Notes: generated by a model from the sequence alone, not told the origin. A stretch of 64,000 nucleotides of DNA from an uncultured Gammaproteobacteria bacterium (GCA_964356225.1 CAYHGA010000002.1:14894-78893), one strand, 5' to 3'. Positions 42,555 to 61,994 are shown, counted from the stretch's first letter. Made by a program: numbers and translations.

Positions 42555-42870
42555 TTGGGGGTTTAGTCGCTACTTTTAACAGTCTTAAAAAAGAATAAAA
42601 GACAAATGTGTAAATCATGAATCCGGTTTGTATTCCAAACAGGCTTAGTGGCAGAAGAAATAGAATGCTAAAAATGACTAAAGTTTCCGGGACTTTATAC
42701 ATCGTTACTATTGCCAATGAAAATAAGAGCAACTTAAGCTCCAGGCTTTGTTCTAAAATATAAACTTCGGCTCCGGTCTTTATAAGCTCAGAAAAAATAA
42801 TATAGAAAATCAAAAGTAACATAATTTTTGGCTTTTCCAGATGTATATGCGTAATTATATTAATTTTCAT
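42547..42870 (-). CDS. Small polytopic membrane protein, possible GtrA-like lipid-linked sugar translocase
   Basis: 107 aa with 3-4 predicted transmembrane helices. It lies between a GT2 and a giant GT-C gene with 4-8 nt overlaps. Assignment rests on size, topology and context only. Confidence 0.35.
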   Translation of the reverse strand: MKINIITHIHLEKPKIMLLLIFYIIFSELIKTGAEVYILEQSLELKLLLFSLAIVTMYKVPETLVIFSILFLLPLSLFGIQTGFMIYTFVFYSFLRLLKVATKPPNE

Positions 42871-45800: not shown

Positions 45801-46391
45801 CGGAATCCCGGCTCCACCGTTTAGGAAAAAAAGTGTTACTCCTACCAGGATGGCATTTTTAAAAACTGACCCTTCTCTTAAATTAACATTGATTATTGCG
45901 AGAGTTATCAAAGGAAGCGCTGAGACAATAGAAAACTTGGACATCTCGGCAATAATCCAGGCCTGGAGAAGATAATGGTTCAGCATGTAAAACAAAGATC
46001 CGGAAATTCTTAAGACGGAATTTTCTTTTTCTGGGTGAAGCGATTTTAAAAGAACGTACATAGTTATCCCGGGAAGGGTAAACCAGAAAATGAAGTCAAA
46101 CTTTTGAGCAAGCTGTAATGAGCCTGTTAGCGCGTAAAAAAACGCCTGTAGGCCGTGTATAAAAATACCGGGGATGGCATCGGTTTGATTAGAACCAAAA
46201 CTGCCAACTCTATCAGTCCAAACAAATAACCTGTCTAACCAAAAGTCTATTGGGGCTAAAGGATAACTCATATCGTGGCCAGCGGCTAAATAACCACCCT
46301 TAAACCACAAAAGCGGTACTAACCCTACTAGGAGAAGGAATATTATTTCCAACCAATACCGATTAAATTTAGGTAGTTTCAACGGTCCCAT
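42867..46391 (-). CDS. Giant polytopic membrane protein, putative GT-C glycosyltransferase (AftD/YfhO-like)
   Basis: 1174 aa. About 13 N-terminal transmembrane helices, first loop GHDMSYPLAP...WTDRVGSFGSNQ, a soluble domain of about 650 aa, and one C-terminal helix. It is a paralog of the 1031-aa neighbour. Confidence 0.5.
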   Translation of the reverse strand: MGPLKLPKFNRYWLEIIFLLLVGLVPLLWFKGGYLAAGHDMSYPLAPIDFWLDRLFVWTDRVGSFGSNQTDAIPGIFIHGLQAFFYALTGSLQLAQKFDFIFWFTLPGITMYVLLKSLHPEKENSVLRISGSLFYMLNHYLLQAWIIAEMSKFSIVSALPLITLAIINVNLREGSVFKNAILVGVTLFFLNGGAGIPLWGGLFIVALTTTIITFLISSQPFVDKFKRTLSFSLLSLIFVLLLNFYWIYPYIASYQYNYTHRIGAAGGSEGAIAWSREISKNASFTNLIKLQGIPDWYDNPNHPYANTLLTNYFFLLLASVFPAIAFFSLLNKKGQANSDIVYKVVFLAILLVAIPFTAGSHPPTGVLYDLALKYIPGFPIFRTPFYKFGMALWFAYSYLVAVGLKQLTVKRAPFFSLTAFVVLLGIYNYPVFTGVFFNWSNKYSTRVKVPDYILEAKKELDSNSFSARTLMLPQLHDGNKYIAYDWKYFSLSSIPSILSRKPVLLNDAVLSGDEPGLVNAIYQQLEKSSQSSLLKYVGVDRAIVQEDFKVDEDMDYLTGSIKKALYRAPNSSLYKEVGKWKFFTINDPETKPLIYIPQNFSYILAETSQLSRISQTPGMPSLADAFIFKHISEGSNIDPIIYQKDIQNITIQAQCLNCQEKKYIDVVRSNPPPIFPSNPFYFLIEFIDQQKSEKYELPTEKIDFTMGTMSKEISAMDRIIINPKNSNTISYLFRKWSNNIYLVDQFFKDIDQQSQKDEYARRIYFYYWNFLVSIQKWRETGLTESTRAQLGKFEDMLTMSVQELDISPEVPISNYDVRTKQYTINVPYAGNYKLAVYNYKPNDRQALSGFVNNTPHILAKSSSSNKWYFGESIRLDQGGQSIVLPELIRKEKSYPGFKINATARSSECKSINLGEVDPEIDYNLNLEYLTLSDRLVDIELLETNQQFPKGNKKTIYPQTDKNSSAPFSYRLNIKYKPSIYAETALLRICVEGTYDFPAAFELKGIKVTENYSDYLAFVTKENPLIPPENYNLQFVALNQTAYLVKVSGISDSFILGFNSRFDQQWSVREVETSLANSYFKGREKKYLGGKVVEYERQDRHLLSDLVFKGEGAKSPDIKLNAYGNGWLIDSGSEKELAFLIEYRPQNILYKTSLVSIISLFSLGLIYLVLFYSKK

Positions 46392-46532: not shown

Positions 46533-49500
46533 CTATAAAAGTAAAAAAAATAAAATAATCAATAAAGAGGCTGTACTTACTCCTACTGCTTTGTAAAAAT
46601 CGTTTTGGTTATTATATTCCAAAAGATAAACATGTTCATTATCCTGGTTACTTTTTTCGGAATTTAAAATCCACCCGGGAGAGAAACCATTTAGTTCAAG
46701 AGTCGGATAAAGTTTTTTGCCGTTGTTTGGGAAAACGATGTCTGATAGCACGTGGGTATCTTGTCTTTCGTACTCAACCACTTTGCCGTTTTGAAAACTT
46801 CTCTTGTCTCCTCTAAAGTATTTGTTTACATCTTGCTCTATTTCTCTTAAACTCCAATTCGGATCAAAACGCGAGTTAAAGCCTAGCAAGAAGCGTTCGC
46901 TGCCTTTAGCTTTGAGTAAATATTTGGTTTGATTTAGGGCTACAAATTCAATATTTGGTGAAACAAACTCGGGAGCATTTTTCATCAATTCTGCAAAAAT
47001 TTTAGGTCTTGTTTCTGAATTTTTCGGTTTTTGTAACTCTAATAAAATCCGTACGTTTTCAAGCGGCACATTGGTAATTTGGTACCAATTTGTGCCGATT
47101 CTTTGAGCGCTAAACGTGCGATTGTTAACCGTCAATTGTATTTGATCACTTAATGTTGACTTATTGTAAAGATAAAGATTATAGCTTCCTGTTTCCGGAA
47201 CTTCGAGGCCGTATTTATATAATTTGTCGTCTACCTTCACCACAGGCTGTCCAAACTGTTCATCAATTTCTGTAATAGCTTTTCTTAATTCAATTTCAAG
47301 ATTAATCAGGTCTGATTTTATCGGGCCTAGTTGAGCAGAAGTTGCCCACTGAGATTCATAAGAAATGAAAAATGACAAGTAAAAACGAAGTTTTCTAAGG
47401 ATTTCTTGTTTTATTTTTGAATCCGAAATTTGATCCAGGTTAAGTTTCATTTCTTTCAAGTTTTTGATTAAATCCATTACTGCTACCCCGATCCCCTTTT
47501 CATCTTTCTTGGCTTGAAGCAAACCCAGGTCTGAAATTAAAGTTGTAGAAGCCGATAAATTGATTTCAATTCTCGCGTTTGGACTACCGGAAAAGTATTT
47601 TCTCGCGTCAGTTATAAACTTACCCAGCTTATAAAACGCTGTTCCGGGTATTAACGCCTTTGATGTGGAGAAATATATTTGATAGTTATCGGCTGAAGGA
47701 CAATCAGTACAATTAGCCTGGATAATAAGTTTAGAAAAAATGTCTACTTTTTTGTTATCTTCTGGAAAATCAGACCACAAAAACGCAGCGCTATCTAAGG
47801 CCCCTGGCAGATTTGCGACTATATCTAAATCTTTTTGATCAGATGAAATGAATGTAACTGCCGGTGGAGAGTAAATTCGAGGAAGGATTTCCCCATTATA
47901 ACCGTAGAAATCCCATCTTCCTATACTTTTCTTAAAAGTAAAATCTTTAGATTTTTTAAATGACTCTTTTATCCCACTTAAGACGTTGCCTTCATAATCT
48001 GGCGAAATAAAGTCATTTTGCACTACGGCTCTGTCAGCCCCTGTAAATTTAACCAAATTAGAATTTCCAAATTTAATATACTCTGATAAAGTGCTGATTA
48101 TCAAATTTGTCTCATTGGGCCTTGCTAACACTCCGTTTACTGTTAAGGATTTTCTTCCCATCATATGTGACAAATCATTTAAGCTAAAATAACCCCAATC
48201 GTAATCAATATACTCAGTTCTTATATCAGCGTTGGGTAAAGATAAAGTTCTGGTAGAGAATTTACTACTATCAAGTTCCTTCTTTGCTTCAAAGATATAA
48301 TCAGGCACTTTTACCATCGTGGATTTCCCTTTAGAATAGTTAAAAAAACTTCCTGTTAAAAATGGATAATTGTATATAAAGAGCGAAACTATAAATGCGC
48401 CAAGTAAAACCTTTGGTTTAATTTTTAACCAGTCTATTACATCTTTGACTCCCACTGCGATTAAATAGGCATAAGCAAACCAAATAATCATCCCAAATTT
48501 AAAAAACCCGGAACGAAACATGCCAAAACCGGGGGCGTTAACCAACAAGTAATCGTAAAATATTCCCAAAGGAGAATGGCTTCCTGCAGAGAGCGGAACT
48601 GCAATAAGTAATAAACTTAAGAAGTAAATTCTCGTTTTAAATAATAAGCCCGATAGTTTTTTAAGATTTAAAAGACCAAACAGAGCTAAAGTCGGAAAAA
48701 GAAGGTTTAGAAATAATAATATGGGATTTTTAAAAAATTCATTTGCAAAAGGATGATTTGGGCTGGCATACCAATCAGGTATTCCCCTAAGTTTAAACAG
48801 GTTTATCCAACTGGTATTTACGCTTATCCCCTGGCTCCAGGAAAGAGTCCCCGCTATTCCCCACGCTTGTTCGAATCTTTGCCCAAAGGTTTGGTTATAA
48901 GACTTAAAATAAGGGTAAAACCAATAACTACTAAGCAGTGTCCAGAATAAAGCAGATAAAAAAGAAAAGATGAGTAATCTTTTTATCTTAGGCCAAAAAC
49001 TTTCGTTTGACAAAAAGAAGAATATTATTGCTGTCGATGCAACTACTACAAACAAGCTAATCAAAAGTGGAATACCCTCTCCACCATTTAAGAAAAATAA
49101 GGTCAGGGCAAAGAGTAGAGAATTTTTTACGGGAGATTCTTTTTTATGTAATGTCTTAATTATTAAAAGTACAACTATAGGTAGAGCTGCGACGATTGAA
49201 AACTTAGTTCTTTCCGCGATAGTCCAGGCCTGAAGAAGATAGTGGTTCATCATGTAAAATAGGCTTCCGAAAATTCTAACCGGATAATCATTTTTCTTAG
49301 GATGTAGATAACAAAGAAGTGCGTACATCATAATTCCCGGAAGAACAAACCAAAAAATGTAAGTTATCTTTTGAACTGCGGATAGCGAGAACCCTATGAA
49401 GGACAGCAAAGCTTCAAGTCCATGTATAAACACGCCCGGCAGAACTTGAACTGAATTAGAGCCAAATGGGCCCAGTCTGTCGGTCCATGTATATAGTCTA

Positions 49501-49628
49501 TCTAAAAAATGAGCTACTGGGGCCAGGGAGAAACCCATATCGTGACCCAATCCTATGTATCCAGGCTTATACCAAAGAAGTGGTGCTAAACCAACGATTA
49601 ACAATAAAAGGATCTCAATTTTTTTCAT
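46533..49628 (-). CDS. Giant polytopic membrane protein, putative GT-C glycosyltransferase (paralog of 42867-46391)
   Basis: 1031 aa. N-terminus LIVGLAPLLWYKPGYIGLGHDMGFSLAPVAHFLDRLYTWTDRLGPFGSNS aligns with the 1174-aa protein. Same topology, ending in a C-terminal helix. Confidence 0.5.
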   Translation of the reverse strand: MKKIEILLLLIVGLAPLLWYKPGYIGLGHDMGFSLAPVAHFLDRLYTWTDRLGPFGSNSVQVLPGVFIHGLEALLSFIGFSLSAVQKITYIFWFVLPGIMMYALLCYLHPKKNDYPVRIFGSLFYMMNHYLLQAWTIAERTKFSIVAALPIVVLLIIKTLHKKESPVKNSLLFALTLFFLNGGEGIPLLISLFVVVASTAIIFFFLSNESFWPKIKRLLIFSFLSALFWTLLSSYWFYPYFKSYNQTFGQRFEQAWGIAGTLSWSQGISVNTSWINLFKLRGIPDWYASPNHPFANEFFKNPILLFLNLLFPTLALFGLLNLKKLSGLLFKTRIYFLSLLLIAVPLSAGSHSPLGIFYDYLLVNAPGFGMFRSGFFKFGMIIWFAYAYLIAVGVKDVIDWLKIKPKVLLGAFIVSLFIYNYPFLTGSFFNYSKGKSTMVKVPDYIFEAKKELDSSKFSTRTLSLPNADIRTEYIDYDWGYFSLNDLSHMMGRKSLTVNGVLARPNETNLIISTLSEYIKFGNSNLVKFTGADRAVVQNDFISPDYEGNVLSGIKESFKKSKDFTFKKSIGRWDFYGYNGEILPRIYSPPAVTFISSDQKDLDIVANLPGALDSAAFLWSDFPEDNKKVDIFSKLIIQANCTDCPSADNYQIYFSTSKALIPGTAFYKLGKFITDARKYFSGSPNARIEINLSASTTLISDLGLLQAKKDEKGIGVAVMDLIKNLKEMKLNLDQISDSKIKQEILRKLRFYLSFFISYESQWATSAQLGPIKSDLINLEIELRKAITEIDEQFGQPVVKVDDKLYKYGLEVPETGSYNLYLYNKSTLSDQIQLTVNNRTFSAQRIGTNWYQITNVPLENVRILLELQKPKNSETRPKIFAELMKNAPEFVSPNIEFVALNQTKYLLKAKGSERFLLGFNSRFDPNWSLREIEQDVNKYFRGDKRSFQNGKVVEYERQDTHVLSDIVFPNNGKKLYPTLELNGFSPGWILNSEKSNQDNEHVYLLEYNNQNDFYKAVGVSTASLLIILFFLLL

Positions 49629-51246
49629 TTGTGATATCCTTTTTTAATTTCTCTCTTATGTTTCCAGAAACGTTTTTAACAGAGTGTTTTTGATAGTCCC
49701 AATAATACGCATGCACATTGTCAGAAGATACGTCTGGATTCTCTTTGAGCGCACTTAATAGTTTGCTATAAGTCATGAAATATCCGTATTTGCCAGTTTT
49801 ATATTGTTTAAGCCCTTCATGGGAGAGGTCCCAAAAATCTGGATCGGTTAAAGCTTCATTTGGAACCTTGCCGGTGTTGTATAACCAAACAGCTAATGTT
49901 TGTCCAAATCCTGACTGAAATTCCCAAAACCCATTATTGTCCGTAAAAAAATAAAAGACATTGTTTCTTTCCAAGTTTGGTTTAATTTGTGATACAGTCT
50001 CAAGCATGGCTTTGCGGTATGCTCCTGTTTTGATATCTAATGCCAAGTCTCGTTTGATATTTGTTACATAATAACCCAAGAGGGGTAACAATATTATTAT
50101 GGATAATGGCAGTTTAATTTTAGGCAAAATTGACATATAAGTGTCGACTGTGAGAGCCAAAATCAGCCCTGCCCAAAGAGCGGGAAAAATATAAAAGCGG
50201 TGCTCTAATGTTGCCGGTTGGTTGGGGAACAAGACAAAAGGCGCACAGGAAAAACCAAAAGTTACTAGCGAGAACAATATTGTTTTTTTTGACCTTTTGG
50301 CTAAAGCTACGGCCCCAAGTACTATTGATAAGACTGTAATTGAACCAATTACTGAAACGGCGTCTCCAATAATGCTTTCTATTACATAACCGTTAGTCAA
50401 ATCTCCATAATGGATCTTGTTAGCTTTGTAAAATAAACTATAAAGTTGTTTTTGGGGGATGAAGACTTGGAAAAGGGTACGGGAAGGAATTAAAAGTGTG
50501 TTGTAGACAATATTTCCGCTCTGGGTAATTTTAGCCGCTTCAGGAACACTAGATGAAACCTCAATATTTTTGAAAAGTAGTTTTGGAAGTGCAATTGTTA
50601 AAAGAATTGGAATTATTAATATACTCCAACTCCATCTAATGCCTTTGGAAAAGACTAGTAATGGAAAAGTAAGTATGTAATATATTCCAGATTCTTTAAA
50701 AAGCAGTGAGATCAACATAAAGAGTGAGCAAAGTAATAAATTTTTTATCCTGCGATTTTTTCGGAAGGTTAATAGATTCCAAAAAGACATCATGAAGAAT
50801 GTAAACGAAAACTGAGACGGCACAATCGAGCTAATCCACGTGATGGCTTGTTGTGAGTATCCGTTTGTTAACCAAAATAGCGTAGTTACGATGGAAATTA
50901 CCCTGGATTCAGTAAGCTTCTCGATGCAAAAGTAAATTAGCAGAGAATTGGCCACTGCCATAAAAAATGCCAAATAACCGTACCATGAAAAATTTAGGCC
51001 GAAGGTGTTGAAAACCACATAATTGGCCAAAGATGTAAGGGGAAGGAATCTGAACAAGCCTCCGGCTGGATGAAATATGTCTATAACGGCTCGGGTTATG
51101 CCACCATTATCCCTTCTACTCATGGCCCCACCCAATCCCAACCACTCATCCTGCTGAAAAAAGATGTTATTTATTCCCCAAAAGGCTAGTAGAGCAACTA
51201 AAATAATTATTGACAAACTAAGAATGTGGGGCCGTATCTTACGCAT
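49615..51246 (-). CDS. Polytopic membrane protein, putative GT-C glycosyltransferase
   Basis: 543 aa, about 13 transmembrane helices. First loop FFQQDEWLGLGGAMS has a D-E motif. A soluble C-terminal domain of about 130 aa follows. Confidence 0.45.
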   Translation of the reverse strand: MRKIRPHILSLSIIILVALLAFWGINNIFFQQDEWLGLGGAMSRRDNGGITRAVIDIFHPAGGLFRFLPLTSLANYVVFNTFGLNFSWYGYLAFFMAVANSLLIYFCIEKLTESRVISIVTTLFWLTNGYSQQAITWISSIVPSQFSFTFFMMSFWNLLTFRKNRRIKNLLLCSLFMLISLLFKESGIYYILTFPLLVFSKGIRWSWSILIIPILLTIALPKLLFKNIEVSSSVPEAAKITQSGNIVYNTLLIPSRTLFQVFIPQKQLYSLFYKANKIHYGDLTNGYVIESIIGDAVSVIGSITVLSIVLGAVALAKRSKKTILFSLVTFGFSCAPFVLFPNQPATLEHRFYIFPALWAGLILALTVDTYMSILPKIKLPLSIIILLPLLGYYVTNIKRDLALDIKTGAYRKAMLETVSQIKPNLERNNVFYFFTDNNGFWEFQSGFGQTLAVWLYNTGKVPNEALTDPDFWDLSHEGLKQYKTGKYGYFMTYSKLLSALKENPDVSSDNVHAYYWDYQKHSVKNVSGNIREKLKKDITNEKN

Positions 51247-51959: not shown

Positions 51960-53501
51960 TTAAATTTTACGGGCATATATTTCAAGAGAATCAAAAAAAT
52001 TTATGGTTAAAAACGGTTTTCCCTTAAGCGCGGATAACAATTTATATATTGGTGGAAATATATTTTTTAGACGGGTTATCCAGTAATTTAAGCTAAAAGT
52101 CCAACTGTATTTCCCGAGCTTTTCAATTTTATACCCTAAAGACAAAAGAAGTAAAGATAATGTTTCTTCTGTAAAATAATAAATATGATCTGGACGAATG
52201 TGCCACCAATTTTCACCCAATAATTTTGAAATTAGGCTCCCTATATCGGGCGTCACTAGACATAACACCCCGTCTTTATTCAGAATTTTGTGAATGTCTG
52301 CTAAAAGTTTTCTGGGGGAAGATACGTGTTCAATCACGTCCAGGCAAGTTACGGCATCAAATGGCTTCCCCTTGAGCTTAACAGTTTCAAGTGTACCTTG
52401 AATAATATTTAGTCCGAATTTTTCCCTCCCAATTCTAGAAGCCCATTTTGATGGCTCAATTCCGATTGACTCCCACTTATGTCTGTGCGCAATTTCTAAA
52501 AGTGTTCCTGTAGCGCATCCAATATCCAAAAGCTTTCCAGAAAATTTATGTAGATTTTCTATCTTCTTAAATATTCTTTCATGCGTCATTAACCTTGCCG
52601 TTCTTTCATTTTCATAATCAGGGTCTACAAAGCCTGAATATCTTTCTACTAGTTTTTTATCTTTCTCTCTGGGAGAACAGTAAAGTAAATTACAATCCAA
52701 GCATTTAACTATTTGAGAATGGTCACCATATGAATTGTCGGTTATGTAGTACTTATCTTTGGCAATTCCCCTTTTTTGGTAAACAACTCTTGCTTTATCG
52801 TTACTACAAATATCGCAAATATGATTTGATAAACTGTTTATTTGAAATGTTTTTTTCATGAATCTATGATATTTTGTTAAAAGAAAAACCCAGGGAATTA
52901 CCAATGATTTTTTGAATTGTGCTTGAGAAAGATTTTCTAAAAACTCACTTCGACTCGAAAAATTATCCATGCAGATGTAATTTCTACCAAGCTCGTATTT
53001 AGTGTGAGCGTCACTGCCGATACACACAATTTTCCCTATTTTCTTTGCAAACTTTTCTGCTTTTAAATTGTCCCATGGCTTAATTGTTCTACCATTAAAG
53101 ACTTCAATTATGTCTATGTCATCAATATTCAAGGTTAAAGAATTTTCGTTAATGGCGGTTTTCCTTGTGGTGGTGTCAAACGGATGCGGTAAATACACAA
53201 GCCCTCCTTGGTGTTTAATTTCTTTAATTGTTTGCCTCATTGAAAGACCTGAAGGAATGAATTTTTTTAAAAATAAGCCTATTATCTCTCCTTCTTTACT
53301 CAAGATCTCCTCACCCACAATTACTTTAAATGGGGCAATTCTTTGAAGCCGTAGGGCGCCTTCAATTTGATTGTGGTCGGTAACAGCTAAAACATCAATC
53401 TTTTTCTGGATGCATTTATCTATTAAATCTTTGTAAGAGATCGAACAGTCGTACGAATACTTTGTATGAACATGTAATTCAACTTTAATTTTGGCAGACA
53501 T
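51960..53501 (-). CDS. Fusion protein: N-terminal PHP-family phosphoesterase, Cys4 zinc-ribbon, C-terminal class I SAM methyltransferase
   Basis: 513 aa. ELHVHTKYSYDCS...AVTDHN...GSDAHT are the His/Asp metal motifs of a PHP domain. The middle has CDICSND...CLDCNLLYC. The C-terminus has LLDIGCATGTLLEIA...AVTCLDVIEHV...KDGVLCLVTP. Confidence 0.65.
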   Translation of the reverse strand: MSAKIKVELHVHTKYSYDCSISYKDLIDKCIQKKIDVLAVTDHNQIEGALRLQRIAPFKVIVGEEILSKEGEIIGLFLKKFIPSGLSMRQTIKEIKHQGGLVYLPHPFDTTTRKTAINENSLTLNIDDIDIIEVFNGRTIKPWDNLKAEKFAKKIGKIVCIGSDAHTKYELGRNYICMDNFSSRSEFLENLSQAQFKKSLVIPWVFLLTKYHRFMKKTFQINSLSNHICDICSNDKARVVYQKRGIAKDKYYITDNSYGDHSQIVKCLDCNLLYCSPREKDKKLVERYSGFVDPDYENERTARLMTHERIFKKIENLHKFSGKLLDIGCATGTLLEIAHRHKWESIGIEPSKWASRIGREKFGLNIIQGTLETVKLKGKPFDAVTCLDVIEHVSSPRKLLADIHKILNKDGVLCLVTPDIGSLISKLLGENWWHIRPDHIYYFTEETLSLLLLSLGYKIEKLGKYSWTFSLNYWITRLKNIFPPIYKLLSALKGKPFLTINFFDSLEIYARKI

Positions 53502-53504
53502 TGA

Positions 53505-54383
53505 CTATAAGTAGAAAAGTATAAATAAAAGAATAATGACGATGGTATTTAAGATAAACTTATAACTAAAAACGAATGATTCAATATTTCTTGATTTGGC
53601 TTCACCGGATTTTACTTTTTTTACTATCCAAAGAAAATATAACACTATAAACGGAATTCCCATTAAAAATGACCGCTGATATTTATAAATTTCTCTAGCA
53701 ATAAAAATTGTTGATAGAGCTATATAAAAATACATCATGATCAACAGGCTTTTCAGAGAATAGGTATCAAATGTGTTTCTGTATGGAACTAGTTTTTTAC
53801 CATAAAACTTGAGCTCACCGTATCTTTTTGCGGTCATTAAAACTGCTCCTATAGACCAGGTTGATAATAAAATTAAAAGAGGGGGGAATTCTGATTTAAC
53901 TATCACAAACCAACCCAGGAGAAATCTGATAGGATTATTTAATGATTCTGAAATTACGTCTAAATAAGGTATATTTTTTAGTCTTATAGGTCTAATGTTA
54001 TACAAAATTCCGGCGATCCAGAGGGATCCAAGGACGTAAAGGAAATTGACATTATAAAAAATGTTAGCTACGAGCAAACTTCCAAATAATAGAATAAAGG
54101 CTAGTATTTCTGCTCTAAAAATTGTTATTTTGCCTGAAGGAATTGGTCTTGTTTTTTTGTCCGGGTGTCTTTTATCGAATTCTACATCTGCGATCTGGTT
54201 GACAATGTAATTAACCGAAGAAATTAGAGACGCCAGGATAAAAGCTCCAACTGCTTGTATCACAACTTGCGATCCAATGGATTTGCTTTGACTAAGAAAA
54301 ATTGCCGATATTATTCCAGCGATAATAAACAAGTTTTTGAACCAGTGATCAACCCGCATCAGCCTGATGTAACTATAGAACAT
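53505..54383 (-). CDS. UbiA-family polyprenyl-phosphate prenyl/phosphoribosyl-transferase (resembles decaprenyl-phosphate 5-phosphoribosyltransferase)
   Basis: 292 aa, 8-9 transmembrane helices. NQIADVEFDKRHPDKKTRPIPSGKI matches the N-x-x-x-D-x-x-x-D ... R-P-[IL]-[PA]-S-G UbiA active-site motif. N-terminal RVDHWFKNLFIIAG resembles the RPxQWxKN start of DPPR synthases. Confidence 0.7.
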   Translation of the reverse strand: MFYSYIRLMRVDHWFKNLFIIAGIISAIFLSQSKSIGSQVVIQAVGAFILASLISSVNYIVNQIADVEFDKRHPDKKTRPIPSGKITIFRAEILAFILLFGSLLVANIFYNVNFLYVLGSLWIAGILYNIRPIRLKNIPYLDVISESLNNPIRFLLGWFVIVKSEFPPLLILLSTWSIGAVLMTAKRYGELKFYGKKLVPYRNTFDTYSLKSLLIMMYFYIALSTIFIAREIYKYQRSFLMGIPFIVLYFLWIVKKVKSGEAKSRNIESFVFSYKFILNTIVIILLFILFYL

Positions 54384-55668
54384 TACTTTGGCTCAAAAAT
54401 TTCTTAACTTCTTTAAATACTGCATTTTGATCTTGATTTGCGTCAATTATTTGAAGTTTGATAAGTCTAGGCAAGCTTTGATATATTTTTTGCTGCTCAT
54501 AGTAATAATCGGGGGTAAATTCCTGTTCGCGTTTAAAAATAGTTGTTGGTCCTGCTGACATCATAAAGGCTATGTCTGATTTGGGTAATAATTTTACAAA
54601 AAATTTAAATGCCCACACCGGACAGTACCCGTAGTAAAAAAGATTGGCCCAAATGTCAGTGTAAAACCTGTCTGCGATGACAAAATCATTACTGGTAACA
54701 ATTGGGTATATTTTAAAAATATATGCTGCCCAAATATCAATAAAGGCAGGTATGAACCATAATTTAAAAAGAGGGTTTTTATTACGCCTAACTGGACCAG
54801 ACGGTGAACTACCCGTTGTTAATCTCAAAAATCCAATCAATGGCTTAAACAAAAAATACGTAAACATTGATTCGCCTGCGTTGACTCTTTTTCCATGGCT
54901 AATTAAATAATCAGTTAGAAGTTTTACTTGAGTGCTTTTCCCGGTACCATCAATCCCTGTAAACGATATCAAAAATCCCCTTCTTTCATAGGGTAAAGTT
55001 TTATTAACCAGATATCTAACACGGAAAAAGAGATAATAAGCTAAACTCACAAAATCGAACTTCTCTAGGTAAGAATATAGTATTAATTTCACTGGTAAAA
55101 ATAGGGGAAATTTTGGCTTTGGTTGCTGGTTTTTCATCCACTTTATGAAATTTATAAATGTGTTGTTCCAATTATACTGAACGGTCTGTTGTATGAGTTC
55201 TTGAGAATTCTTTATTTTTCTCCATTGGGGGAAAAACATTTCAAAGTCATCCTGTGTGAAATAGGTCTTTTCGAAAATAACGTTTATCATAACTAAAAAG
55301 GCATCCCATGTGGCGTCCACACAGTTTTTGGTTGAATTTAGCCAGATTTTTTTAACATCCAAATATTTTTCCTTGCGCCATGTAAAATCCTGGTGTAAAT
55401 CGATTTTTATTCTCCCGGGCCTGTTTAAATTAACCTGTATTCCCGCAATCCGTCCTCCTAATGCTTGATCGTGTGAAGATTGTTTGTAGCCTAATCTCTC
55501 AAGACTGTAAATCGATCCTTCAAAATCTTTAGACCGAACCAGAATATCAAGATCATCAGGAGCCCCTGTATTGGGATTATACCGCGTTAACAAATAATTT
55601 ATTCCTCGTAAATCCTGTAAAGTCTGCCTCATTTTTTTAATCATATCTTCTTTTTCATGAACAACCAA
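54373..55668 (-). CDS. Two-domain protein: N-terminal nucleotidyltransferase-fold (NTase/LicD-like) domain fused to a thymidylate-kinase-like P-loop kinase domain
   Basis: 431 aa. N-terminus GINYLLTRYNPNTGAPDDLDILV has a Gly...D-x-D NTase-fold signature. C-terminus FLISFTGIDGTGKSTQVKLLTDYL is a Tmk-type Walker A. Confidence 0.5.
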   Translation of the reverse strand: MVVHEKEDMIKKMRQTLQDLRGINYLLTRYNPNTGAPDDLDILVRSKDFEGSIYSLERLGYKQSSHDQALGGRIAGIQVNLNRPGRIKIDLHQDFTWRKEKYLDVKKIWLNSTKNCVDATWDAFLVMINVIFEKTYFTQDDFEMFFPQWRKIKNSQELIQQTVQYNWNNTFINFIKWMKNQQPKPKFPLFLPVKLILYSYLEKFDFVSLAYYLFFRVRYLVNKTLPYERRGFLISFTGIDGTGKSTQVKLLTDYLISHGKRVNAGESMFTYFLFKPLIGFLRLTTGSSPSGPVRRNKNPLFKLWFIPAFIDIWAAYIFKIYPIVTSNDFVIADRFYTDIWANLFYYGYCPVWAFKFFVKLLPKSDIAFMMSAGPTTIFKREQEFTPDYYYEQQKIYQSLPRLIKLQIIDANQDQNAVFKEVKKFLSQSNVL

Positions 55669-57173
55669 CCTTCTGGAGTCTCTTCTACGATTTTGAATTT
55701 TTCAAAGAGGTATCGATCAATTGTTTGATTATAGTTTTGCATTTTCGGTGTTCTCATTTTAGGGCCGTTGTTGGGATCATAAACAACGACTTTGACATTG
55801 TTTTTTTCGATCTTGTCAATAAATTCTAGTTGTTCTTCTTCTGTGGTAATAAACCCGGCCAGGAGATTATTAAACTGGGTAGGACTGGACCTGTGTGACA
55901 GAAAATAAAGACCTGCCATGTAAGGTAAAACCAGCACAGATTCGGTTGAAGTGGAATTTTCTCGTAAGAAAGTTGCTGATCTTTTCAAACTTTCTGCTGA
56001 AGGCTTTGTTGAGTTTGCAGGGTATTTGGAATTGAGATTAAACGTCTGATCAACTATTTGTATCTTATGGTCATTAAAGTGTATCCACCAGACCGATTGG
56101 GATATAGCGGCAACAAACAAGCCAATAATTAAACCATGCAATATAATCCTGGTTTTAAAATTCCGGGTATTTTTAAGAAGAAACACTCCCAAAACAAGAA
56201 ATGGCATTCCCCCTTTTACGAAATGTCCCATATCGCTCCGGCCAAAAACGTAAGGCAGAGCGAGTATTCCTGCAAGAGTAAGAATCGGAATTTCTATATT
56301 GTTTTTGATTATGACAGCTGTTTTTTTTAGAACCAGGAGGATACTAACCAAATATGTAGCTATGATGGCATATCCGTAATAGGCCGTGAATGTGTTACTC
56401 ACAGTGGCTAAATCAAACCGCAAAGGAATTAAATCTAATATGGATGGGAAAGATAAATGGTGAAGTCGGGTAATGGTTATTGCGCCCATAAAGACTTGGT
56501 TTATGAAAGCGCCAAAAATTCCCAAGTTGACCGTCCATAAGACTATAGCCAAAAGCGGTAATCCAAAACCGATTCCCATAAACAGTGAATACACGAACCA
56601 CCTTCTAATCCAGTCTTGGCGGGAAACCAAAAAAAGATGGATCGGCAAAACAACTATGGCAGCTACCCCAAAAGTACCAGGGATGTCTAAACGGAAAAGG
56701 CTAGACAATCCCAGCACCGAACCCGAACAACTAAAGAGCCACTTATTTTTTTGGTCAACGGCTTGAAGAAAAAGATACAAACCCAAAAAAATGAAGGTCA
56801 TCAAAAAAAGACGTTCGATGTTGACATCTAAAAATGTAATCAAAGTAGCTGGAATAGTAGATAATTTCGTTGACGCAAACCTTTTGCAGATGAGGAAAAT
56901 TAAAACTGGCGTAAATGAAAAAATGACGCTGGAAATAATTCTAGGTACTTGTACTGACTCACCGAAAAATTTGAATATTAAAGCATAAAAATAGTTATCC
57001 ATAGGAGGAAATATGGCAAAAAAATCACGATACGGGATGTCTCCAGTTAAAATTCTCCGAGCATTGTGCAGACTCTCCCCTTCGTCCACTAATCCAAAAC
57101 CATAGAACGAGAAAAGAGTAGTTTTAGAAAGAGCTACAAGAAAAATTAGAATTATGATCAGGTTACTTTTCAT
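55641..57173 (-). CDS. GT-C fold membrane glycosyltransferase (ArnT/PMT-like). Its start overlaps the stop of a GtrB-like GT2.
   Basis: 510 aa, about 13 transmembrane helices. First loop LVDEGESLHNARRILTGDIPYRDFF has the D-E-x-x-x-x-x-A motif of GT39/GT83 enzymes. Confidence 0.55.
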   Translation of the reverse strand: MKSNLIIILIFLVALSKTTLFSFYGFGLVDEGESLHNARRILTGDIPYRDFFAIFPPMDNYFYALIFKFFGESVQVPRIISSVIFSFTPVLIFLICKRFASTKLSTIPATLITFLDVNIERLFLMTFIFLGLYLFLQAVDQKNKWLFSCSGSVLGLSSLFRLDIPGTFGVAAIVVLPIHLFLVSRQDWIRRWFVYSLFMGIGFGLPLLAIVLWTVNLGIFGAFINQVFMGAITITRLHHLSFPSILDLIPLRFDLATVSNTFTAYYGYAIIATYLVSILLVLKKTAVIIKNNIEIPILTLAGILALPYVFGRSDMGHFVKGGMPFLVLGVFLLKNTRNFKTRIILHGLIIGLFVAAISQSVWWIHFNDHKIQIVDQTFNLNSKYPANSTKPSAESLKRSATFLRENSTSTESVLVLPYMAGLYFLSHRSSPTQFNNLLAGFITTEEEQLEFIDKIEKNNVKVVVYDPNNGPKMRTPKMQNYNQTIDRYLFEKFKIVEETPEGWLFMKKKI

Positions 57174-58215
57174 GAGCGATCAATGTTGATAATTTGCTCG
57201 GATTGAACAACAGAAGAATAATCAGTAGATCGGTAATCAAAAGGTTAACCACCGGCTCATATAAACCCACCCAGTCTCTGTGTTTGACTGATTTATATAT
57301 GCCCACAAATACGGAAGGGATTATCAAATTGACGTAGACTATCCATATGAATATTTTGAACAGATTTCTTTTGAGATCAATCCAAGTATAGAGATTATTT
57401 TGAAGATGAGAAAAATATACTTTAGTGAGATTATATTTTCGTTTACGGAGTAACTCTTTTAAGCTTGTTACGTGATGGTGATACAGGACGGCTTGAGGAA
57501 CAAAGGCAAATTGTTGATGACCATGAAGCACTAAAAGCTTTAAAAAATCCAATTCTAGAAACATCTCAAAGTTTTTGGTTAACTCCCATAATTGTTTACG
57601 TCTATATAGGCACCGCCCGGATGGCGGGATTCTATCGGTTTCATATTTGCATAAAAAATAACTAGTAAGAGATTTAATAATCGTTGATTCAACTGATGGA
57701 GTAAGCCATTGATATAATCCGTCCCGTTGGAGAACGTCAAAAGATAAATATCGTTCGATAGGAGCAGAATTCGGACCAGCTCCTTCTTTGGTAAAGCTAG
57801 CAACTATTCTAATATCTTGTTCCAAAGGAGTAACTAGTTGTTTAAAAAAATCTTTACTTATTAGTTCTACGTCTGCATCCAGATACATGAAGTACTTACC
57901 CGTTGCCGCCCTAAATCCGATCATTTTACCGATTTCACCGTGTTTTTGGCCGTTTCGTAAAAGCAGTACTGGATATTTTTTGGCAATTTTTAAGGTGTGA
58001 TCTGTAGAATCATCATCTACTACCAATACTTCTAATTTGTCTTTAGGATAATCCTGACCAAAAATTGAGTCTAAACATTTCTTGATATTTTTTCCCTCGT
58101 TAAAGGTTGGGGCAACGACTGAGATTTTTGGCCAGATCATTTTTCTAAATATTTTGTAAACAACAGTCCTTTTGCAAAGGTGTAAGCATAACTTAAATGT
58201 GATAAATAAATGCAC
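57163..58215 (-). CDS. GT2 glycosyltransferase with C-terminal transmembrane helices (GtrB/DPM1-like)
   Basis: 350 aa. ISVVAPTFNEGKNIKKCLDSI...LEVLVVDDDSTDHT...YLDADVEL, plus two C-terminal helices. Confidence 0.7.
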   Translation of the reverse strand: MHLFITFKLCLHLCKRTVVYKIFRKMIWPKISVVAPTFNEGKNIKKCLDSIFGQDYPKDKLEVLVVDDDSTDHTLKIAKKYPVLLLRNGQKHGEIGKMIGFRAATGKYFMYLDADVELISKDFFKQLVTPLEQDIRIVASFTKEGAGPNSAPIERYLSFDVLQRDGLYQWLTPSVESTIIKSLTSYFLCKYETDRIPPSGRCLYRRKQLWELTKNFEMFLELDFLKLLVLHGHQQFAFVPQAVLYHHHVTSLKELLRKRKYNLTKVYFSHLQNNLYTWIDLKRNLFKIFIWIVYVNLIIPSVFVGIYKSVKHRDWVGLYEPVVNLLITDLLIILLLFNPSKLSTLIAHEK

Positions 58216-59144
58216 AAAGGTAGAATTAGGGCGACTTTCCAGTCAGCTATTCTTAAGGCATCGATCATGCCAATTATGTATAAAATGATTCCCAACATTA
58301 ATACCTGCGGAAAAACGATTGAGGTTAACATTAAAATTATGGTTATAATAATGCCAAGTAAGGGCATGAAGTAACTGGGACGAAGTGATGTTTGGGGATA
58401 TTTTTTAACAAAATATCCTCTGTGCAGACCCACATTGCCAACTTGGGCTAGATATCCTTCTGGAAAATGTCTCCGGTGGTGGTAAACCACTATTTCGGGA
58501 TGGTATAAAATTTTTTTCCCGGAATTAATTAGTTTGAGACATAAAGCAGTATCTTCACCTCCGTAAAATTTATTGCCGAAGCCGCCGATGGAGAGTAAGT
58601 CTTTACGTTTAGCTATTAAGTTATATGCGGGGTAGTCGTCTACCAGCCGGGGTGACTTCTGAATAAATCTGTAGGCATATGGACCCGTGCCCCAAAAGGT
58701 GGAGAGAATGGCTCCAGTGATTTGCTGGCGGAATCCGTCCATGGGGGGAGTTAAACCAGGACCGCCAATGGCGGAAATATCGGGGTGTTGATTAAATATT
58801 TTTATTGCTTGCTTGAGCCAATCCCGCCGGGGGTAAGAATCATCGTCTAAAAAGGCTATATATTCAGCTTTTGATTTAATGATACCAATGTCTCTTTTTT
58901 CAGCCGGACCAGTGCGCGACTGTCCCGTTTCCAAAACACGTATCCGAGGGTTTTTGAAATTTAGCTTCACTCCCTTATCTACTCCTATTAGAATTTCAAA
59001 ATTAGGATATTCCAATTGTAAAGATTGAGCTACTGCTTCATAAAAATATGCTGTTTCTTTATAGAGAGCAATGATAATTGAAATTTTGGGGTATTTTTTC
59101 ATATGTGTGTTATTTTTTTTGAACTTGATAAAATTTGTTTCCAA
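58137..59144 (-). CDS. GT2 glycosyltransferase with C-terminal transmembrane helices
   Basis: 335 aa. ISIIIALYKETAYFYEAVAQSL...FLDDDSYP (DxD); hydrophobic C-terminal 90 aa. Confidence 0.7.
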   Translation of the reverse strand: METNFIKFKKNNTHMKKYPKISIIIALYKETAYFYEAVAQSLQLEYPNFEILIGVDKGVKLNFKNPRIRVLETGQSRTGPAEKRDIGIIKSKAEYIAFLDDDSYPRRDWLKQAIKIFNQHPDISAIGGPGLTPPMDGFRQQITGAILSTFWGTGPYAYRFIQKSPRLVDDYPAYNLIAKRKDLLSIGGFGNKFYGGEDTALCLKLINSGKKILYHPEIVVYHHRRHFPEGYLAQVGNVGLHRGYFVKKYPQTSLRPSYFMPLLGIIITIILMLTSIVFPQVLMLGIILYIIGMIDALRIADWKVALILPLCIYLSHLSYAYTFAKGLLFTKYLEK

Positions 59145-60220
59145 TTGTATCTTCGACTCATTCTCGATGTGTTGCCAGCTAATATCATATATTCTTTATT
59201 ACCAAAATATTTTAAGAAAAGCGTGGCAATTTGTCTGTCATCGTCAAATAATAATCCTGTCTCATCATTTACTATCAGTTCGTCCATACTACTCCCCTTT
59301 TTGGCAATCGTTGGAGTACCAGAAGCGGCTGCTTCCAAAACTGTTAATCCAAATCCTTCCTTAAATGACGAGTGAATTAAAAAATGAGATTTGGCATATA
59401 GAGTGTTTCGTTGTTGATCAGAAACTTTCCCAAGAAACTCTACATTTTTTTGTAAATGGTTTGAGTTCACATAATCTTTAAGTTCCTGAACATAGCCTAA
59501 ATCTCCATCTCCAACTACAAATAATTTAAATTTTGGAAGATTTTTTGATATCTCTCTGGCGGCTCTAAGTGCAGACTCAATACCCTTCATTTTAACAAGC
59601 CTGGCTACGAATAAGGCTGATGGGAAATTAAACTTTGTGGCGGGCTTAAATTTTGATATATCAATTCCCAAAGGAATAATTTTTATTTTCAAATTTGGGT
59701 TTATTTTGAGGATGTCTCTTTTTGTACTTTCTGATATCGCCCAAATTTCGCAGTTTCGATAAACAAGATATACGATTCTTTCTAGAAATTTTCCTATGTG
59801 GTTAATTGGAAAGGGATACATTTTGTCCCAAATTGTACCCGCGACCTCACATACCCATAATACTTTTCGGCCTCTTGCGTAGAGAGGTGAAAATAAAGGT
59901 AGTCCATGAATTGCGTCCACAACTAAGTCGATTTTTTTGTTTCTGATAATTCCCCAACCGATCCAGATGTTATTTAATAAAAATATTGGGTAGGTAAGAA
60001 GCATGGTTAATGTGTTGTAAAACTTCAATTCTGGGCCAACTCTATGAATGGTTAATCCGTGCGTACTTTCGTCTATAGGTAAGTTTCCATAACGGCTCCC
60101 TAACCAAAAAACTTTGTGTCCGGCATCAGTCCAATGTGTGACATATTTCAACATCACTTGCTCTGCTCCTCCACTCCTGGGATTGGACGGATCCCGCCAC
60201 GACAAAATCAAAATGTTCAT
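59099..60220 (-). CDS. Glycosyltransferase family 4 (GT-B)
   Basis: 373 aa. MNILILSWRDPSNPRSGGAEQV (N-domain) ... GFGLTVLEAAASGTPTIAKKGSSMDELIVNDETGLLFDD. Confidence 0.75.
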   Translation of the reverse strand: MNILILSWRDPSNPRSGGAEQVMLKYVTHWTDAGHKVFWLGSRYGNLPIDESTHGLTIHRVGPELKFYNTLTMLLTYPIFLLNNIWIGWGIIRNKKIDLVVDAIHGLPLFSPLYARGRKVLWVCEVAGTIWDKMYPFPINHIGKFLERIVYLVYRNCEIWAISESTKRDILKINPNLKIKIIPLGIDISKFKPATKFNFPSALFVARLVKMKGIESALRAAREISKNLPKFKLFVVGDGDLGYVQELKDYVNSNHLQKNVEFLGKVSDQQRNTLYAKSHFLIHSSFKEGFGLTVLEAAASGTPTIAKKGSSMDELIVNDETGLLFDDDRQIATLFLKYFGNKEYMILAGNTSRMSRRYNWKQILSSSKKITHI

Positions 60221-60224
60221 GAAG

Positions 60225-61994
60225 CTATTTTACTACTTTCCAAATTTGAACGACAGCGTTCTCAAATATTTTCTCGATACCATAATCGCCGGGAGAAAAT
60301 CTCAACAGTTCGGCTGTATGCGCGTATTTACTTACATAAATATAACCGGCACCTGTAGATTTTACTTTGGCTTTCAGCCCGTCCTGGGATTTTGCGGCAA
60401 AAACCCCGCTGTTATAAATTATGGCTTTTCCGGAATATTTCTGAACATAGTTTCTGGCGTTGGCAAAGGCTGCCGGACGGTATTTGCCAAAATACTCGCA
60501 CTGCAAACATTCGCTGTCATAGACCAGCACTTTACCTGGCGGTAATTGCCTCAACTTATCTAATCCAATAATTTCTTCCGGAGAAATCCAATATTTTTCT
60601 TTTTTGAATTTATCCCAATCGAAAGAAATAACAGCCCTGATGAGACTTTTGGGGGCCTTGAGTAAGTGTTTTGTGGTCAGGCCCCAGTCGCTAAAAACGA
60701 TCCCGTCTTGTAAATTTTCTGTTCCAGTATTTAATTCTATCCGCCAATTATTGTTAATTTTGGTGATTTTAATTAATTTTGACTTGAAAAATTCTTTAGG
60801 AGGTTTGTTTATTGATTCAAAATACTTGGGCATGGTTTTGATATTTAGATCAGTGATTTTCCAAACTTCAGAAGGATTTTGGATAGAATCAATTAAAGAC
60901 GGAATGTTGATGCGCAAGTCTTTTTCCCGGTTTGGCCAGAGATAATATGGCTCACGCAAATTCGGCGGATAGACTCTGAAATCAATAATTTTACCGTTTG
61001 TCTGGTCTATGCCCAATCGGTAAAAAGGCGATTGATACCAAATCATGCCGTCAAAATTAATCTTTTGTTCAGGCGATATATTAGAAAATTTATCTGTGTA
61101 CCATTTGGCAAAGTCTTTCATGGTCATTTTGGCTGCGGTTTTTTGGGCTATAGTCTGCATTTGTTTAGCATATTCGCCTTGGTAAGCGTCAGGGCTAAAA
61201 TCGCTTTCCAAGCCTACAGTAACTTGAGAAAATAGATCGGTAAGCTGGGAGAAATAATTGATAGCAAGCTTTGGAGTGGTGAAATAGTCCTGGGTGCTGT
61301 ATAGACTGTTGTAGTAACCCCGGCGGGGCTCGCGCGGAGCCCACTGGAAAGTGATTACTCCTATTTTATTGTCTGGGCTGGCCGCCGGAATACCGGCATG
61401 AAGTTTACTGGGGTAATACGGGGTAGACCAATAAGTACCCCATACCTGATAATTATCAGTCGAGTACTGATCCGCCACTCCCAAATTGGCAATGATCCCG
61501 TATTTGTCGCGCATATACTGCAGCGAGAAACTCTCCACCCACCAGGCCCCAACGGAAACCGGGTAGTAATCAAACTGCTCTTTAAACTTAGCAAACACCG
61601 TATCTATAAACTTGATTCTTTCTTCTTGGGTGTAACCCGATAAAAAAACGGCGTTGGCAAAATGCCAAGAACCGGTGTTGTGATACGAGACTCCCGCAGC
61701 TTTACTAAATTCAGGAGTAATCTCCAAGAAAATTCCGAGTTCTTGACTGGATGAAAATTTTTTAAATTCGGTGACTATTTCTGGTTGATTCAGTACATCG
61801 TAAGTCAGTAACCAAGTTGCTGGTAACTGATATTGGGAAATGATGCTGTGCTGAGCCCGAAGGCTAGCTAAATGGTTGATATTGTATTGAGAAATCCGAA
61901 CTGGATTAACAACTGTAATAAATTGATCGGAGGCCAGGACTGGTGAAGTTATAGAAAAAAAAGCAAGAACTAATAACAAGATTAATTTATCCAT
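60225..61994 (-). CDS. Secreted hypothetical protein (possible glycan-processing enzyme)
   Basis: 589 aa with a cleavable-looking signal peptide (MDKLILLLVLAFFSITSPVLA). Rich in aromatic residues. No family recognised. Confidence 0.4.
   Translation of the reverse strand: MDKLILLLVLAFFSITSPVLASDQFITVVNPVRISQYNINHLASLRAQHSIISQYQLPATWLLTYDVLNQPEIVTEFKKFSSSQELGIFLEITPEFSKAAGVSYHNTGSWHFANAVFLSGYTQEERIKFIDTVFAKFKEQFDYYPVSVGAWWVESFSLQYMRDKYGIIANLGVADQYSTDNYQVWGTYWSTPYYPSKLHAGIPAASPDNKIGVITFQWAPREPRRGYYNSLYSTQDYFTTPKLAINYFSQLTDLFSQVTVGLESDFSPDAYQGEYAKQMQTIAQKTAAKMTMKDFAKWYTDKFSNISPEQKINFDGMIWYQSPFYRLGIDQTNGKIIDFRVYPPNLREPYYLWPNREKDLRINIPSLIDSIQNPSEVWKITDLNIKTMPKYFESINKPPKEFFKSKLIKITKINNNWRIELNTGTENLQDGIVFSDWGLTTKHLLKAPKSLIRAVISFDWDKFKKEKYWISPEEIIGLDKLRQLPPGKVLVYDSECLQCEYFGKYRPAAFANARNYVQKYSGKAIIYNSGVFAAKSQDGLKAKVKSTGAGYIYVSKYAHTAELLRFSPGDYGIEKIFENAVVQIWKVVK

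Follow-up and report, generated by a model that had tools for sequence, protein, structure and literature searches.

Only in 2024 was the addition of pentofuranose residues from lipid-linked donors generalised beyond the mycobacteria (PMC11127046). In the systems described by Kelly et al. (2024), O antigens receive alpha-ribofuranose in the periplasm through a UbiA-type polyprenyl-phosphate phosphoribosyltransferase (PPPRS) that bears a HAD phosphatase domain, together with a MATE flippase and a GT-C glycosyltransferase, and these components suffice for ribofuranose addition; epimerases (DprE1/E2, or ORF13) turn the donor into arabinose or xylose (PMC11127046). Such three-component pentofuranose systems are widespread, that of Citrobacter youngae O1 comprising ORF15 (PPPRS-PRP), ORF14 (MATE) and ORF12 (GT136) (PMC11127046). 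Here we consider a candidate relative in a stretch of 64,000 nucleotides (GCA_964356225.1 CAYHGA010000002.1:14894-78893; hereafter the window), deposited under the name of an uncultured Gammaproteobacteria bacterium. In it three consecutive minus-strand genes at 51960-55668, proposed by a first-pass annotation and recovered here with the same boundaries, encode a UbiA-family enzyme, a PHP phosphoesterase fused to a methyltransferase, and a nucleotidyltransferase (NTase) fused to a Tmk-like kinase. The best-supported explanation of these core genes, which we favour with modest confidence on the strength of sequence comparison, is that they form a polyprenyl-phosphate (polyprenyl-P) pentose donor module that lacks an epimerase and uses a non-canonical phosphatase.

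The core genes and their domains are the following, a double colon denoting fusion:

54383..53505, minus strand: UbiA-family enzyme, 292 amino acids (aa); PF01040, 83.5 bits
53501..51960, minus strand: PHP::methyltransferase, 513 aa; PHP and PHP_C N-terminal, Methyltransf_23 C-terminal
52857..53501, minus strand: PHP metal-dependent phosphoesterase domain, TrpH/RNase AM-like; PHP and PHP_C
51960..52856, minus strand: Zn-ribbon class I S-adenosylmethionine (SAM) methyltransferase domain; Methyltransf_23, 88.7 bits
55668..54373, minus strand: NTase::Tmk-like kinase open reading frame (ORF), 431 aa from TTG; weak NTP_transf_5 and Tmk-like P-loop matches
55000..55644, minus strand: NTase domain, PF14907-type, Pol-beta fold; Pfam NTP_transf_5 E 5e-5, below cutoff
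54373..54999, minus strand: Tmk-like P-loop kinase domain; Pfam Thymidylate_kin 24.2 bits, cutoff 27

The UbiA-family enzyme and its fused partners

When the UbiA protein was compared with all PDB sequences (E up to 1), the sole matches were two depositions of Rv3806c (8j8j; E 7e-12), and no aromatic prenyltransferase was matched at that threshold. The NCBIfam models of decaprenyl-phosphate phosphoribosyltransferases (DPPRS) gave 97.6 (NF008977), 76.5 and 64.6 bits and the HAD-UbiA fusion model NF006088, which has the architecture of Citrobacter ORF15, gave 88 bits, as against at most 46 bits for the other NCBIfam models (prenyltransferase, chlorophyll synthase, UbiA, MenA, heme O synthase, EboC). 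As judged from these profiles the protein groups with the polyprenyl-phosphate phosphoribosyltransferases (Rv3806c, PPPRS), and the clustering with MenA, UbiA or chlorophyll synthases that the first-pass annotation had named as fatal to its proposal is not seen.

The active site was compared by mapping residues through a HMMER alignment onto the published Rv3806c structure (PMC10994848) together with a 23-sequence family alignment. The Mg ligands N73 and D77 of Rv3806c correspond to N62 and D66 of the UbiA protein, both invariant in the family, and the diphosphate cluster R22, K87, R90 and K143 to R10, K76, R79 and K136, the last three likewise invariant and R10 at least 90% conserved. Equally invariant are K16 and Y59, the counterparts of K28 and Y70 (5'-phosphate/lipid-phosphate contacts), and K186, that of the lipid-phosphate contact K191. 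The canonical motif N-D-x-x-D-x-x-x-D (N73, D74, D77 and D81 in Rv3806c; N247, D248, D251 and D255 in ORF15) here takes the non-canonical form N62-Q63-x-x-D66-x-x-x-D70, in which the N and both distal D are invariant. A census of this motif in 117 homologs gave 37 of the N-Q type (with one exception, at 43% identity or more), 60 of the N-E type (31-48% identity), 19 of the canonical N-D type (nearly all at 36% identity or less) and one with A at the second position; the characterised enzymes Rv3806c and ORF15 are both of the N-D type. By this sequence criterion the UbiA protein belongs to an uncharacterised (N-Q) branch of phosphoribosyltransferase-like UbiA enzymes.

The second core protein proved, as annotated, to be a PHP domain fused to a SAM methyltransferase (PHP and PHP_C, then Methyltransf_23), and its AlphaFold2 (AF2) model has a mean predicted local distance difference test score (pLDDT) of 90.8. 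Of the PHP metal ligands, H10, H12, H43, E65, H106, D164 and H166 are present in all 37 sequences compared and D18 in 36, so that the metal site, as far as sequence tells, is complete. Among solved folds, those nearest to the PHP half of the AF2 model are TM0559 and the PHP domain of RNase AM (TrpH); across the NCBIfam, PDB sequence and fold searches taken together, CehA/McbA also ranks among the nearest matches. Relatives sharing 43-45% identity with the PHP domain occur as fusions to GT4 glycosyltransferases, which is consistent with action on phosphorylated glyco-intermediates. One such GT4::PHP fusion, 44% identical to the PHP domain of the window, lies in a Capillimicrobium metagenome-assembled genome (MAG; L048, 8001-9884) directly after genes for an inositol-1-phosphate synthase, a CDP-alcohol phosphotransferase and a PAP2 protein, a setting which hints that this relative acts on phosphorylated inositol-lipid intermediates.

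In the methyltransferase half, four Cys and the SAM motif are conserved, and the nearest folds to the AF2 model are MtmC, KijD1 and TcaB9, nucleoside diphosphate (NDP)-sugar C3-methyltransferases with the same Zn-ribbon. The modelled fold suggests that the substrate is a sugar on a phosphate carrier, and O-methylation appears more plausible than C-methylation because no oxidoreductase is encoded nearby.

The third core protein probably starts at the ATG at 55644 (423 aa) rather than at the TTG at 55668, and the 423-aa product is identical to P0118, a protein encoded on contigs as long as 192 kb. Its NTase half belongs to a family in which about 50 homolog clusters of some 240 aa carry PF14907; D31, D33 and D82 are conserved, the AF2 model exceeds a pLDDT of 84, and the nearest folds are ANT(2'')-Ia, MenT1 and LnuA. 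With PF14907 as the sole family match and these nearest folds, a LicD/fukutin-type phosphotransferase is rejected. The fusion to a kinase announced by the first-pass annotation is present in the window, but it is peculiar to this lineage, where a small junctional indel joins in frame what relatives encode as separate genes, and the likeness to LicD is unsupported.

The kinase half retains the P-loop and a DRF motif. The family profile matches Aquifex Tmk (E 4e-11) only at profile positions 7-37 and 94-201, positions 38-93 having no Tmk counterpart, so that the dTMP (nucleoside monophosphate)-binding segment is replaced by a conserved hydrophobic segment; this segment is non-transmembrane, none reaching the transmembrane (TM) threshold. 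With that segment replaced and a Pfam score below the cutoff, a genuine thymidylate kinase is rejected. The protein has no Wzc or CapB match and no C-terminal Tyr cluster, and the AF2 model of this half is poor (pLDDT 30-50). An exhaustive search returned 101 representative clusters of kinase relatives at E up to 1e-10; ten longer relatives scanned with Pfam included three fused to GT4-type domains and one fused to PF14907, and sequence inspection revealed a further NTase::kinase fusion (P0171). P0312, P0320, P0322, P0318 and P0171 carry such fusions, to GT4 domains and, in both orders, to PF14907 NTases. A distant NTase::kinase fusion (L047) belongs to a glycan cluster in which no UbiA gene is in view and methyltransferase genes are one gene away. 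The only literature mention of PF14907 that we found places a Tmk and PF14907 pair beside phosphoenolpyruvate mutase in one family of phosphonate gene clusters. From its sequence associations the pair looks like a reusable cassette for glycan or phosph(on)ate tailoring.

Gene neighbourhood and related loci

The NTase::kinase and UbiA genes overlap by 11 nt and a 3-nt gap separates UbiA from PHP::methyltransferase, and the genes on either side of the trio mostly overlap or abut, the exceptions being gaps of 20 nt and 141 nt further downstream. The trio and its flanking genes look, from this spacing, like one translationally coupled operon. The overlap or abutment, together with an order kept in seven related loci from independent metagenome samples, indicates that the trio consists of real genes in one operon. 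The flanking genes that concern us are these:

55641..57173, minus strand: GT-C glycosyltransferase (PMT_2 type), 510 aa; PMT_2 30.7 bits, above cutoff 26.1
49615..51246, minus strand: GT-C-like polytopic membrane protein, 543 aa; PMT_2 matches in family members
46533..49628, minus strand: large GT-C-like protein, 1031 aa; GT-C_AftD matches in family members
42867..46391, minus strand: paralogous large GT-C-like protein, 1174 aa; 41% identical to the 1031-aa protein, same family alignment
62762..63988, minus strand: MOP-family transporter (Polysacc_synt_3, Polysacc_synt), candidate flippase; far end of the syntenic block
57163..62787, minus strand: cytoplasmic glycosyltransferase set (GT2, GT2, GT4, 589-aa exported protein, GT2); Pfam and synteny with L002, L004, L008
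51267..51959, minus strand: second, stand-alone class I methyltransferase; Methyltransf_25/11

That GT-C genes adjoin the core was rightly annotated, on PMT_2 and GT-C_AftD evidence. The 510-aa protein has eight hydrophobic segments and a VDEGE motif after TM1, and is kept upstream of the NTase gene in all loci of the clade. The family of the 543-aa protein (nine hydrophobic segments, an invariant FFQQDEW after TM1) gives PMT_2 matches in three of five members (best E 3.4e-4). The 1031-aa protein has an N-terminal polytopic domain, an outer domain of about 580 aa and a C-terminal anchor; GT-C_AftD matches were obtained for three of eight members of the family that it shares with the 1174-aa protein (best E 3.5e-7), in which G28 and D30 after TM1 are invariant (GHD in the window protein). 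PDB searches with the single sequences of the 543-, 1031- and 1174-aa proteins, and with a profile of the 1031/1174-aa family, gave no match, and the GT-C status of these three proteins accordingly rests on the weak Pfam matches of family members. Four GT-C-like enzymes per module would suggest the building of a polymer rather than the addition of a single side chain. The MOP transporter lies inside the block syntenic with L002, L004 and L008, a Polysacc_synt gene being found at the same position in L004. The stand-alone methyltransferase has a counterpart in L008 (69% identity) and none in L002 or L004, and the 589-aa protein (60225-61994, minus strand), which has one N-terminal hydrophobic segment and lacks a Pfam match, occupies the same position in L002, L004 and L008.

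The module is embedded in an unbroken run of glycan-biosynthesis genes of about 50 kb (15043-64000), which encodes, besides a Bac_transf initiating transferase, ManC, Wzy_C and an acetyltransferase, two MOP flippases, numerous glycosyltransferases of GT2 and GT4 type, five or more methyltransferases and six or more GT-C-like membrane proteins. Two GT-C-like proteins are without a Pfam match (844 aa, 32710-35244; 441 aa, 35371-36696), and a 578-aa protein (40818-42554, minus strand) consists of two tandem near-identical GT2 modules, pointing to an internal gene duplication. The G+C content is 0.44-0.49 in the dcw/housekeeping part (1-28000) and 0.33-0.40 over the glycan cluster (32000-60000), which may be a variable or acquired region. 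Within the dcw cluster, adjoining MraY, lies a DgkA-type (DAGK_prokar) kinase (7317-7685, minus strand), which as a putative polyprenol kinase could supply the lipid carrier. Neither tRNA genes nor Rfam elements were found in the window.

The N-Q clade was compared through the window and seven further loci from independent metagenome samples (L002, L004, L006, L008, L043, L044 and L046). The order in the clade is GT2, GT2, GT-C (about 510 aa), NTase, Tmk-like kinase, UbiA, methyltransferase and GT-C-like protein (about 550 aa), ending with one or two large proteins (about 1000 to 1180 aa each); in L008 and L044 these genes are slightly rearranged. The NTase and kinase are separate genes in L002, L004 and L006, overlapping in L002. 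Five of the eight loci (the window, L002, L004, L006 and L008) encode PHP and methyltransferase as a single fused protein; the methyltransferase stands alone in L043 and L046 and is fused to the kinase in L044 (MTase::Tmk, P0120). None of the eight loci contains a HAD phosphatase.

For the N-E sister subfamily all neighbouring ORFs were clustered in 28 loci from many phyla. Here a HAD-family phosphatase (PF12710 or PF00702) adjoins the UbiA gene in 12 loci, a Zn-ribbon Methyltransf_23 protein 29-36% identical to the methyltransferase domain of the window occurs in nine, both occur in six and a GtrA-family protein in two, polytopic membrane proteins without a Pfam match being present in many. 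The presence of HAD beside UbiA in N-E loci, and its absence from N-Q loci, supports the PHP domain as a stand-in phosphatase. The N-E subfamily (L009-L040) itself splits in two: 11 of 13 NE[WFY]LD... loci have the methyltransferase, the HAD protein or both, and 11 of the 15 others (mostly of NE[IV]LDAP type) have neither and often lie beside other large membrane proteins.

The proposed pathway and its rivals

On the interpretation that we prefer, these genes would constitute the cytoplasmic, donor-making core of a three-component pentofuranose system of PPPR synthase, flippase and GT-C transferases. The UbiA enzyme would transfer 5-phosphoribose from phosphoribosyl pyrophosphate (PRPP) to polyprenyl phosphate, as residue conservation suggests, and the PHP domain, judging from gene-neighbourhood displacement, would remove the 5-phosphate in place of the HAD or PAP2 phosphatases. 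The fused sugar-type methyltransferase may modify the lipid-linked ribose or the final glycan, the MOP transporter would flip the donor, and the four flanking GT-C-like enzymes would add the sugar to a glycan made by the neighbouring GT2/GT4 enzymes, the NTase and Tmk-like kinase being a conserved accessory pair which probably adds a further phosphate- or nucleotide-based modification. As the first-pass annotation had stated, neither a DprE1-like FAD (flavin adenine dinucleotide) oxidase nor a DprE2-like reductase was found in the 64-kb window, where 48 ORFs of at least 120 aa, that is most of them, were scanned and the rest are visibly methyltransferase- or GT2-like by translation. An arabinose pathway is rejected on this ground, as far as the window reaches, and since no epimerase is encoded nearby the sugar is most likely ribofuranose; the product would probably be polyprenyl-P-ribofuranose, possibly methylated.

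Several observations weigh against this assignment. The UbiA protein falls short of all three NCBIfam DPPRS cutoffs (for NF008977 it reaches 97.6 bits where 234 are required), so that by the equivalog standard of NCBI it is a relative and not an ortholog. As aligned by HMMER, Q135 (ribose O3 contact) is replaced by I126, Y138 (diphosphate, α-phosphate contact) by N129 with Y128 adjacent, and Y157 (5'-phosphate/lipid-phosphate contact) by N150. The equivalent of D74 is Q63; D74 is not a ligand in the Rv3806c structure (PMC10994848), but the ORF15 mutant at the matching position, D248A, has barely detectable activity (PMC11127046). The annotated likeness of the UbiA motifs to DPPR synthases is thus upheld by the Rv3806c and DPPRS matches, with an imperfect NDxxD (D to Q) and two sugar-side contacts that are not conserved. 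The PHP domain is missing from the visible parts of L043, L044 and L046, where it is either dispensable or the phosphatase is encoded elsewhere in the genome; its annotated role as replacement phosphatase keeps the comparative support of the sister loci, which have HAD where this clade does not, without being obligatory. The MOP transporter may instead serve the main glycan, as Wzx. The substrates of the methyltransferase, NTase and kinase are at most predicted, and the NTase and kinase are tied to the module by synteny and gene fusions only; a ribofuranose donor made by a non-canonical enzyme set, as first proposed, is nonetheless the reading best supported. The whole evidence base is computational.

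Some of these observations would be accommodated if the donor of the UbiA enzyme were not PRPP but a different sugar-1-diphosphate, made or tailored by the Tmk-like kinase, NTase and methyltransferase, the product being a modified pentose instead of plain ribose. Kinases such as Tmk and PhnN phosphorylate a phosphate, and the kinase here combines an intact P-loop and DRF motif with a new acceptor-binding segment; 97 of the 117 homologs have N-Q or N-E in place of N-D, the Q135 and Y157 contacts are not conserved in the alignment, and fusions link the four activities (MTase::Tmk in P0120, NTase::Tmk in the window and P0171, Tmk::NTase in P0318, and PHP::MTase). Yet the enzyme keeps the diphosphate-binding cluster as well as both main 5'-phosphate contacts (K28, Y70), in the sister subfamily the methyltransferase occurs without kinase or NTase, and L047 has an NTase::Tmk pair where no UbiA gene is in view, so we regard this donor as an unlikely, if serious, alternative. 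Fusions also lie behind the suggestion that kinase and methyltransferase act as a WbdD-type terminator adding a methyl-phosphate or similar cap, the PHP domain editing or recycling phosphorylated intermediates and UbiA alone belonging to a lipid-donor pathway. A WbdD precedent is cited in PMC11127046, and the MTase::Tmk fusion of L044, the GT4 fusions among both Tmk-like and PHP relatives, and the L047 pair near methyltransferase genes in a glycan cluster all fit it. Against this, the methyltransferase adjoins UbiA across many phyla without any kinase, the block has neither a coiled-coil ruler nor an ABC transporter with a carbohydrate-binding module, and the kinase fold differs from that of WbdD; a terminator of this kind seems quite improbable.

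Two further proposals fare far worse. Some sources label homologs as '4-hydroxybenzoate polyprenyltransferase' or 'UbiG-like', and the methyltransferase gives a weak UbiG match in NCBIfam, as might be expected of an aromatic or quinone prenyltransferase (MenA, UbiA or chlorophyll-synthase type) with its quinone methylase. That identity is rejected for want of any PDB match to aromatic prenyltransferases and with UbiA, MenA and ChlG models at 46 bits or less; the methyltransferase fold is moreover nearest to sugar methyltransferases and the genes sit in a glycan cluster, so that the proposal is effectively refuted. A PHP fold within a polysaccharide cluster also recalls the CpsB/Wzh-type tyrosine phosphatases that regulate a bacterial tyrosine (BY-)kinase, a possibility against which the first-pass annotation had itself warned. 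The PHP domain has no CpsB/YwqE match in NCBIfam, in PDB sequence searches or among the top fold matches; it is TrpH/RNase AM-like, with TM0559, RNase AM and CehA/McbA as nearest matches, and the P-loop protein resembles Tmk and not Wzc or CapB and lacks a C-terminal Tyr cluster. The tyrosine phosphatase is rejected, its probability being negligible.

Returning to the pentose donor module, a bolder version of it would have the N-Q/N-E UbiA enzymes work with the TcaB9-like methyltransferase, and in this clade also with the PHP domain, the NTase and the Tmk-like kinase, to make a modified lipid-linked pentose not described before (such as ribofuranose in methylated or methyl-phosphorylated form), polymerised by AftD-like GT-Cs into a pentofuranan-type envelope polymer of bacteria of the Candidate Phyla Radiation (CPR). 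We offer this as speculation, with rather low expectations of its being right as a whole.

Host, implications and comparison with known systems

The host is probably a CPR (Microgenomates-like) bacterium, on the basis of one homolog named after Daviesbacteria, a groundwater sample and gene content: a 53%-identical PHP::methyltransferase (P0213) carries the name Candidatus Daviesbacteria, and another relative stems from groundwater sampled on a 0.1-µm filter. The closest MAGs (L007, L008) are labelled 'uncultured Gammaproteobacteria', a label that looks doubtful. To our knowledge the cell-envelope glycans of CPR bacteria are essentially unknown, and our literature search on CPR GT-C systems returned nothing relevant. 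Epimerase-less ribofuranose systems of this type were already described in 2024 (PMC11127046), which lowers the novelty of the locus; it extends a published kind of system, what is new being the N-Q/N-E subfamily, the exchange of PHP for HAD, the sugar-type methyltransferase partner, the NTase/kinase cassette and the probable CPR host. If our interpretation is true, the three-component pentofuranose system extends to uncultured, reduced-genome bacteria, the locus identifies a large uncharacterised N-E/N-Q enzyme subfamily in many phyla, the PHP domain suggests a third, unrelated type of phosphatase for the dephosphorylation step, and the conserved methyltransferase partner points to pentofuranose donors in methylated form, so far unseen by chemical analysis. 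It would also provide a concrete handle on CPR cell-envelope glycans.

The individual domains have clear relatives in other settings. With the TrpH/RNase AM and TM0559 phosphoesterases, whose substrates are nucleotides or RNA 5' ends, the PHP domain of the window has fold and metal-binding residues in common, but it differs in being fused to a sugar-type methyltransferase and in lying in a glycan operon. TcaB9, KijD1 and MtmC, which need a 4-keto sugar, have the same architecture of Zn-ribbon and class I methyltransferase at 12-15% identity.

Among whole modules, the sister N-E arrangements (methyltransferase-UbiA-HAD, with or without GtrA) of Saccharibacteria, Buchananbacteria, Ruegeria, cyanobacteria, Desulfobulbaceae and others share the UbiA lineage (NE-type homologs at 35-48% identity to the window protein) and the same Zn-ribbon methyltransferase partner, differ in having HAD instead of PHP and no NTase/kinase pair, and appear to be uncharacterised. 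The mycobacterial decaprenyl-phospho-arabinose pathway (Rv3806c, Rv3807c, DprE1/E2, Rv3789 and the Emb/Aft GT-Cs) provides in Rv3806c the closest solved homolog of the UbiA enzyme, and the window resembles it further in the large AftD-like GT-Cs nearby and in the plurality of GT-Cs, which again suggests polymer building rather than single side-chain addition. In the window the PAP2 phosphatase is replaced by PHP, there is no GtrA, and from the lack of DprE1/DprE2 no arabinose would be expected. With the Citrobacter youngae O1 system the window has in common, as predicted from sequence, a UbiA-type phosphoribosyltransferase beside a phosphatase, a MOP-superfamily transporter (here a candidate flippase) and GT-Cs, all in a glycan cluster; with no epimerase in the window or in the ORF12/14/15 set, ribofuranose is implied. 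In the window, however, a PHP domain stands where Citrobacter has HAD, its fusion partner is the methyltransferase and not the UbiA enzyme, N-Q replaces N-D in the motif, one GT136 gives way to four GT-C-like proteins of PMT_2/AftD type, and an NTase and Tmk-like kinase are added, in a host that is probably a CPR bacterium.

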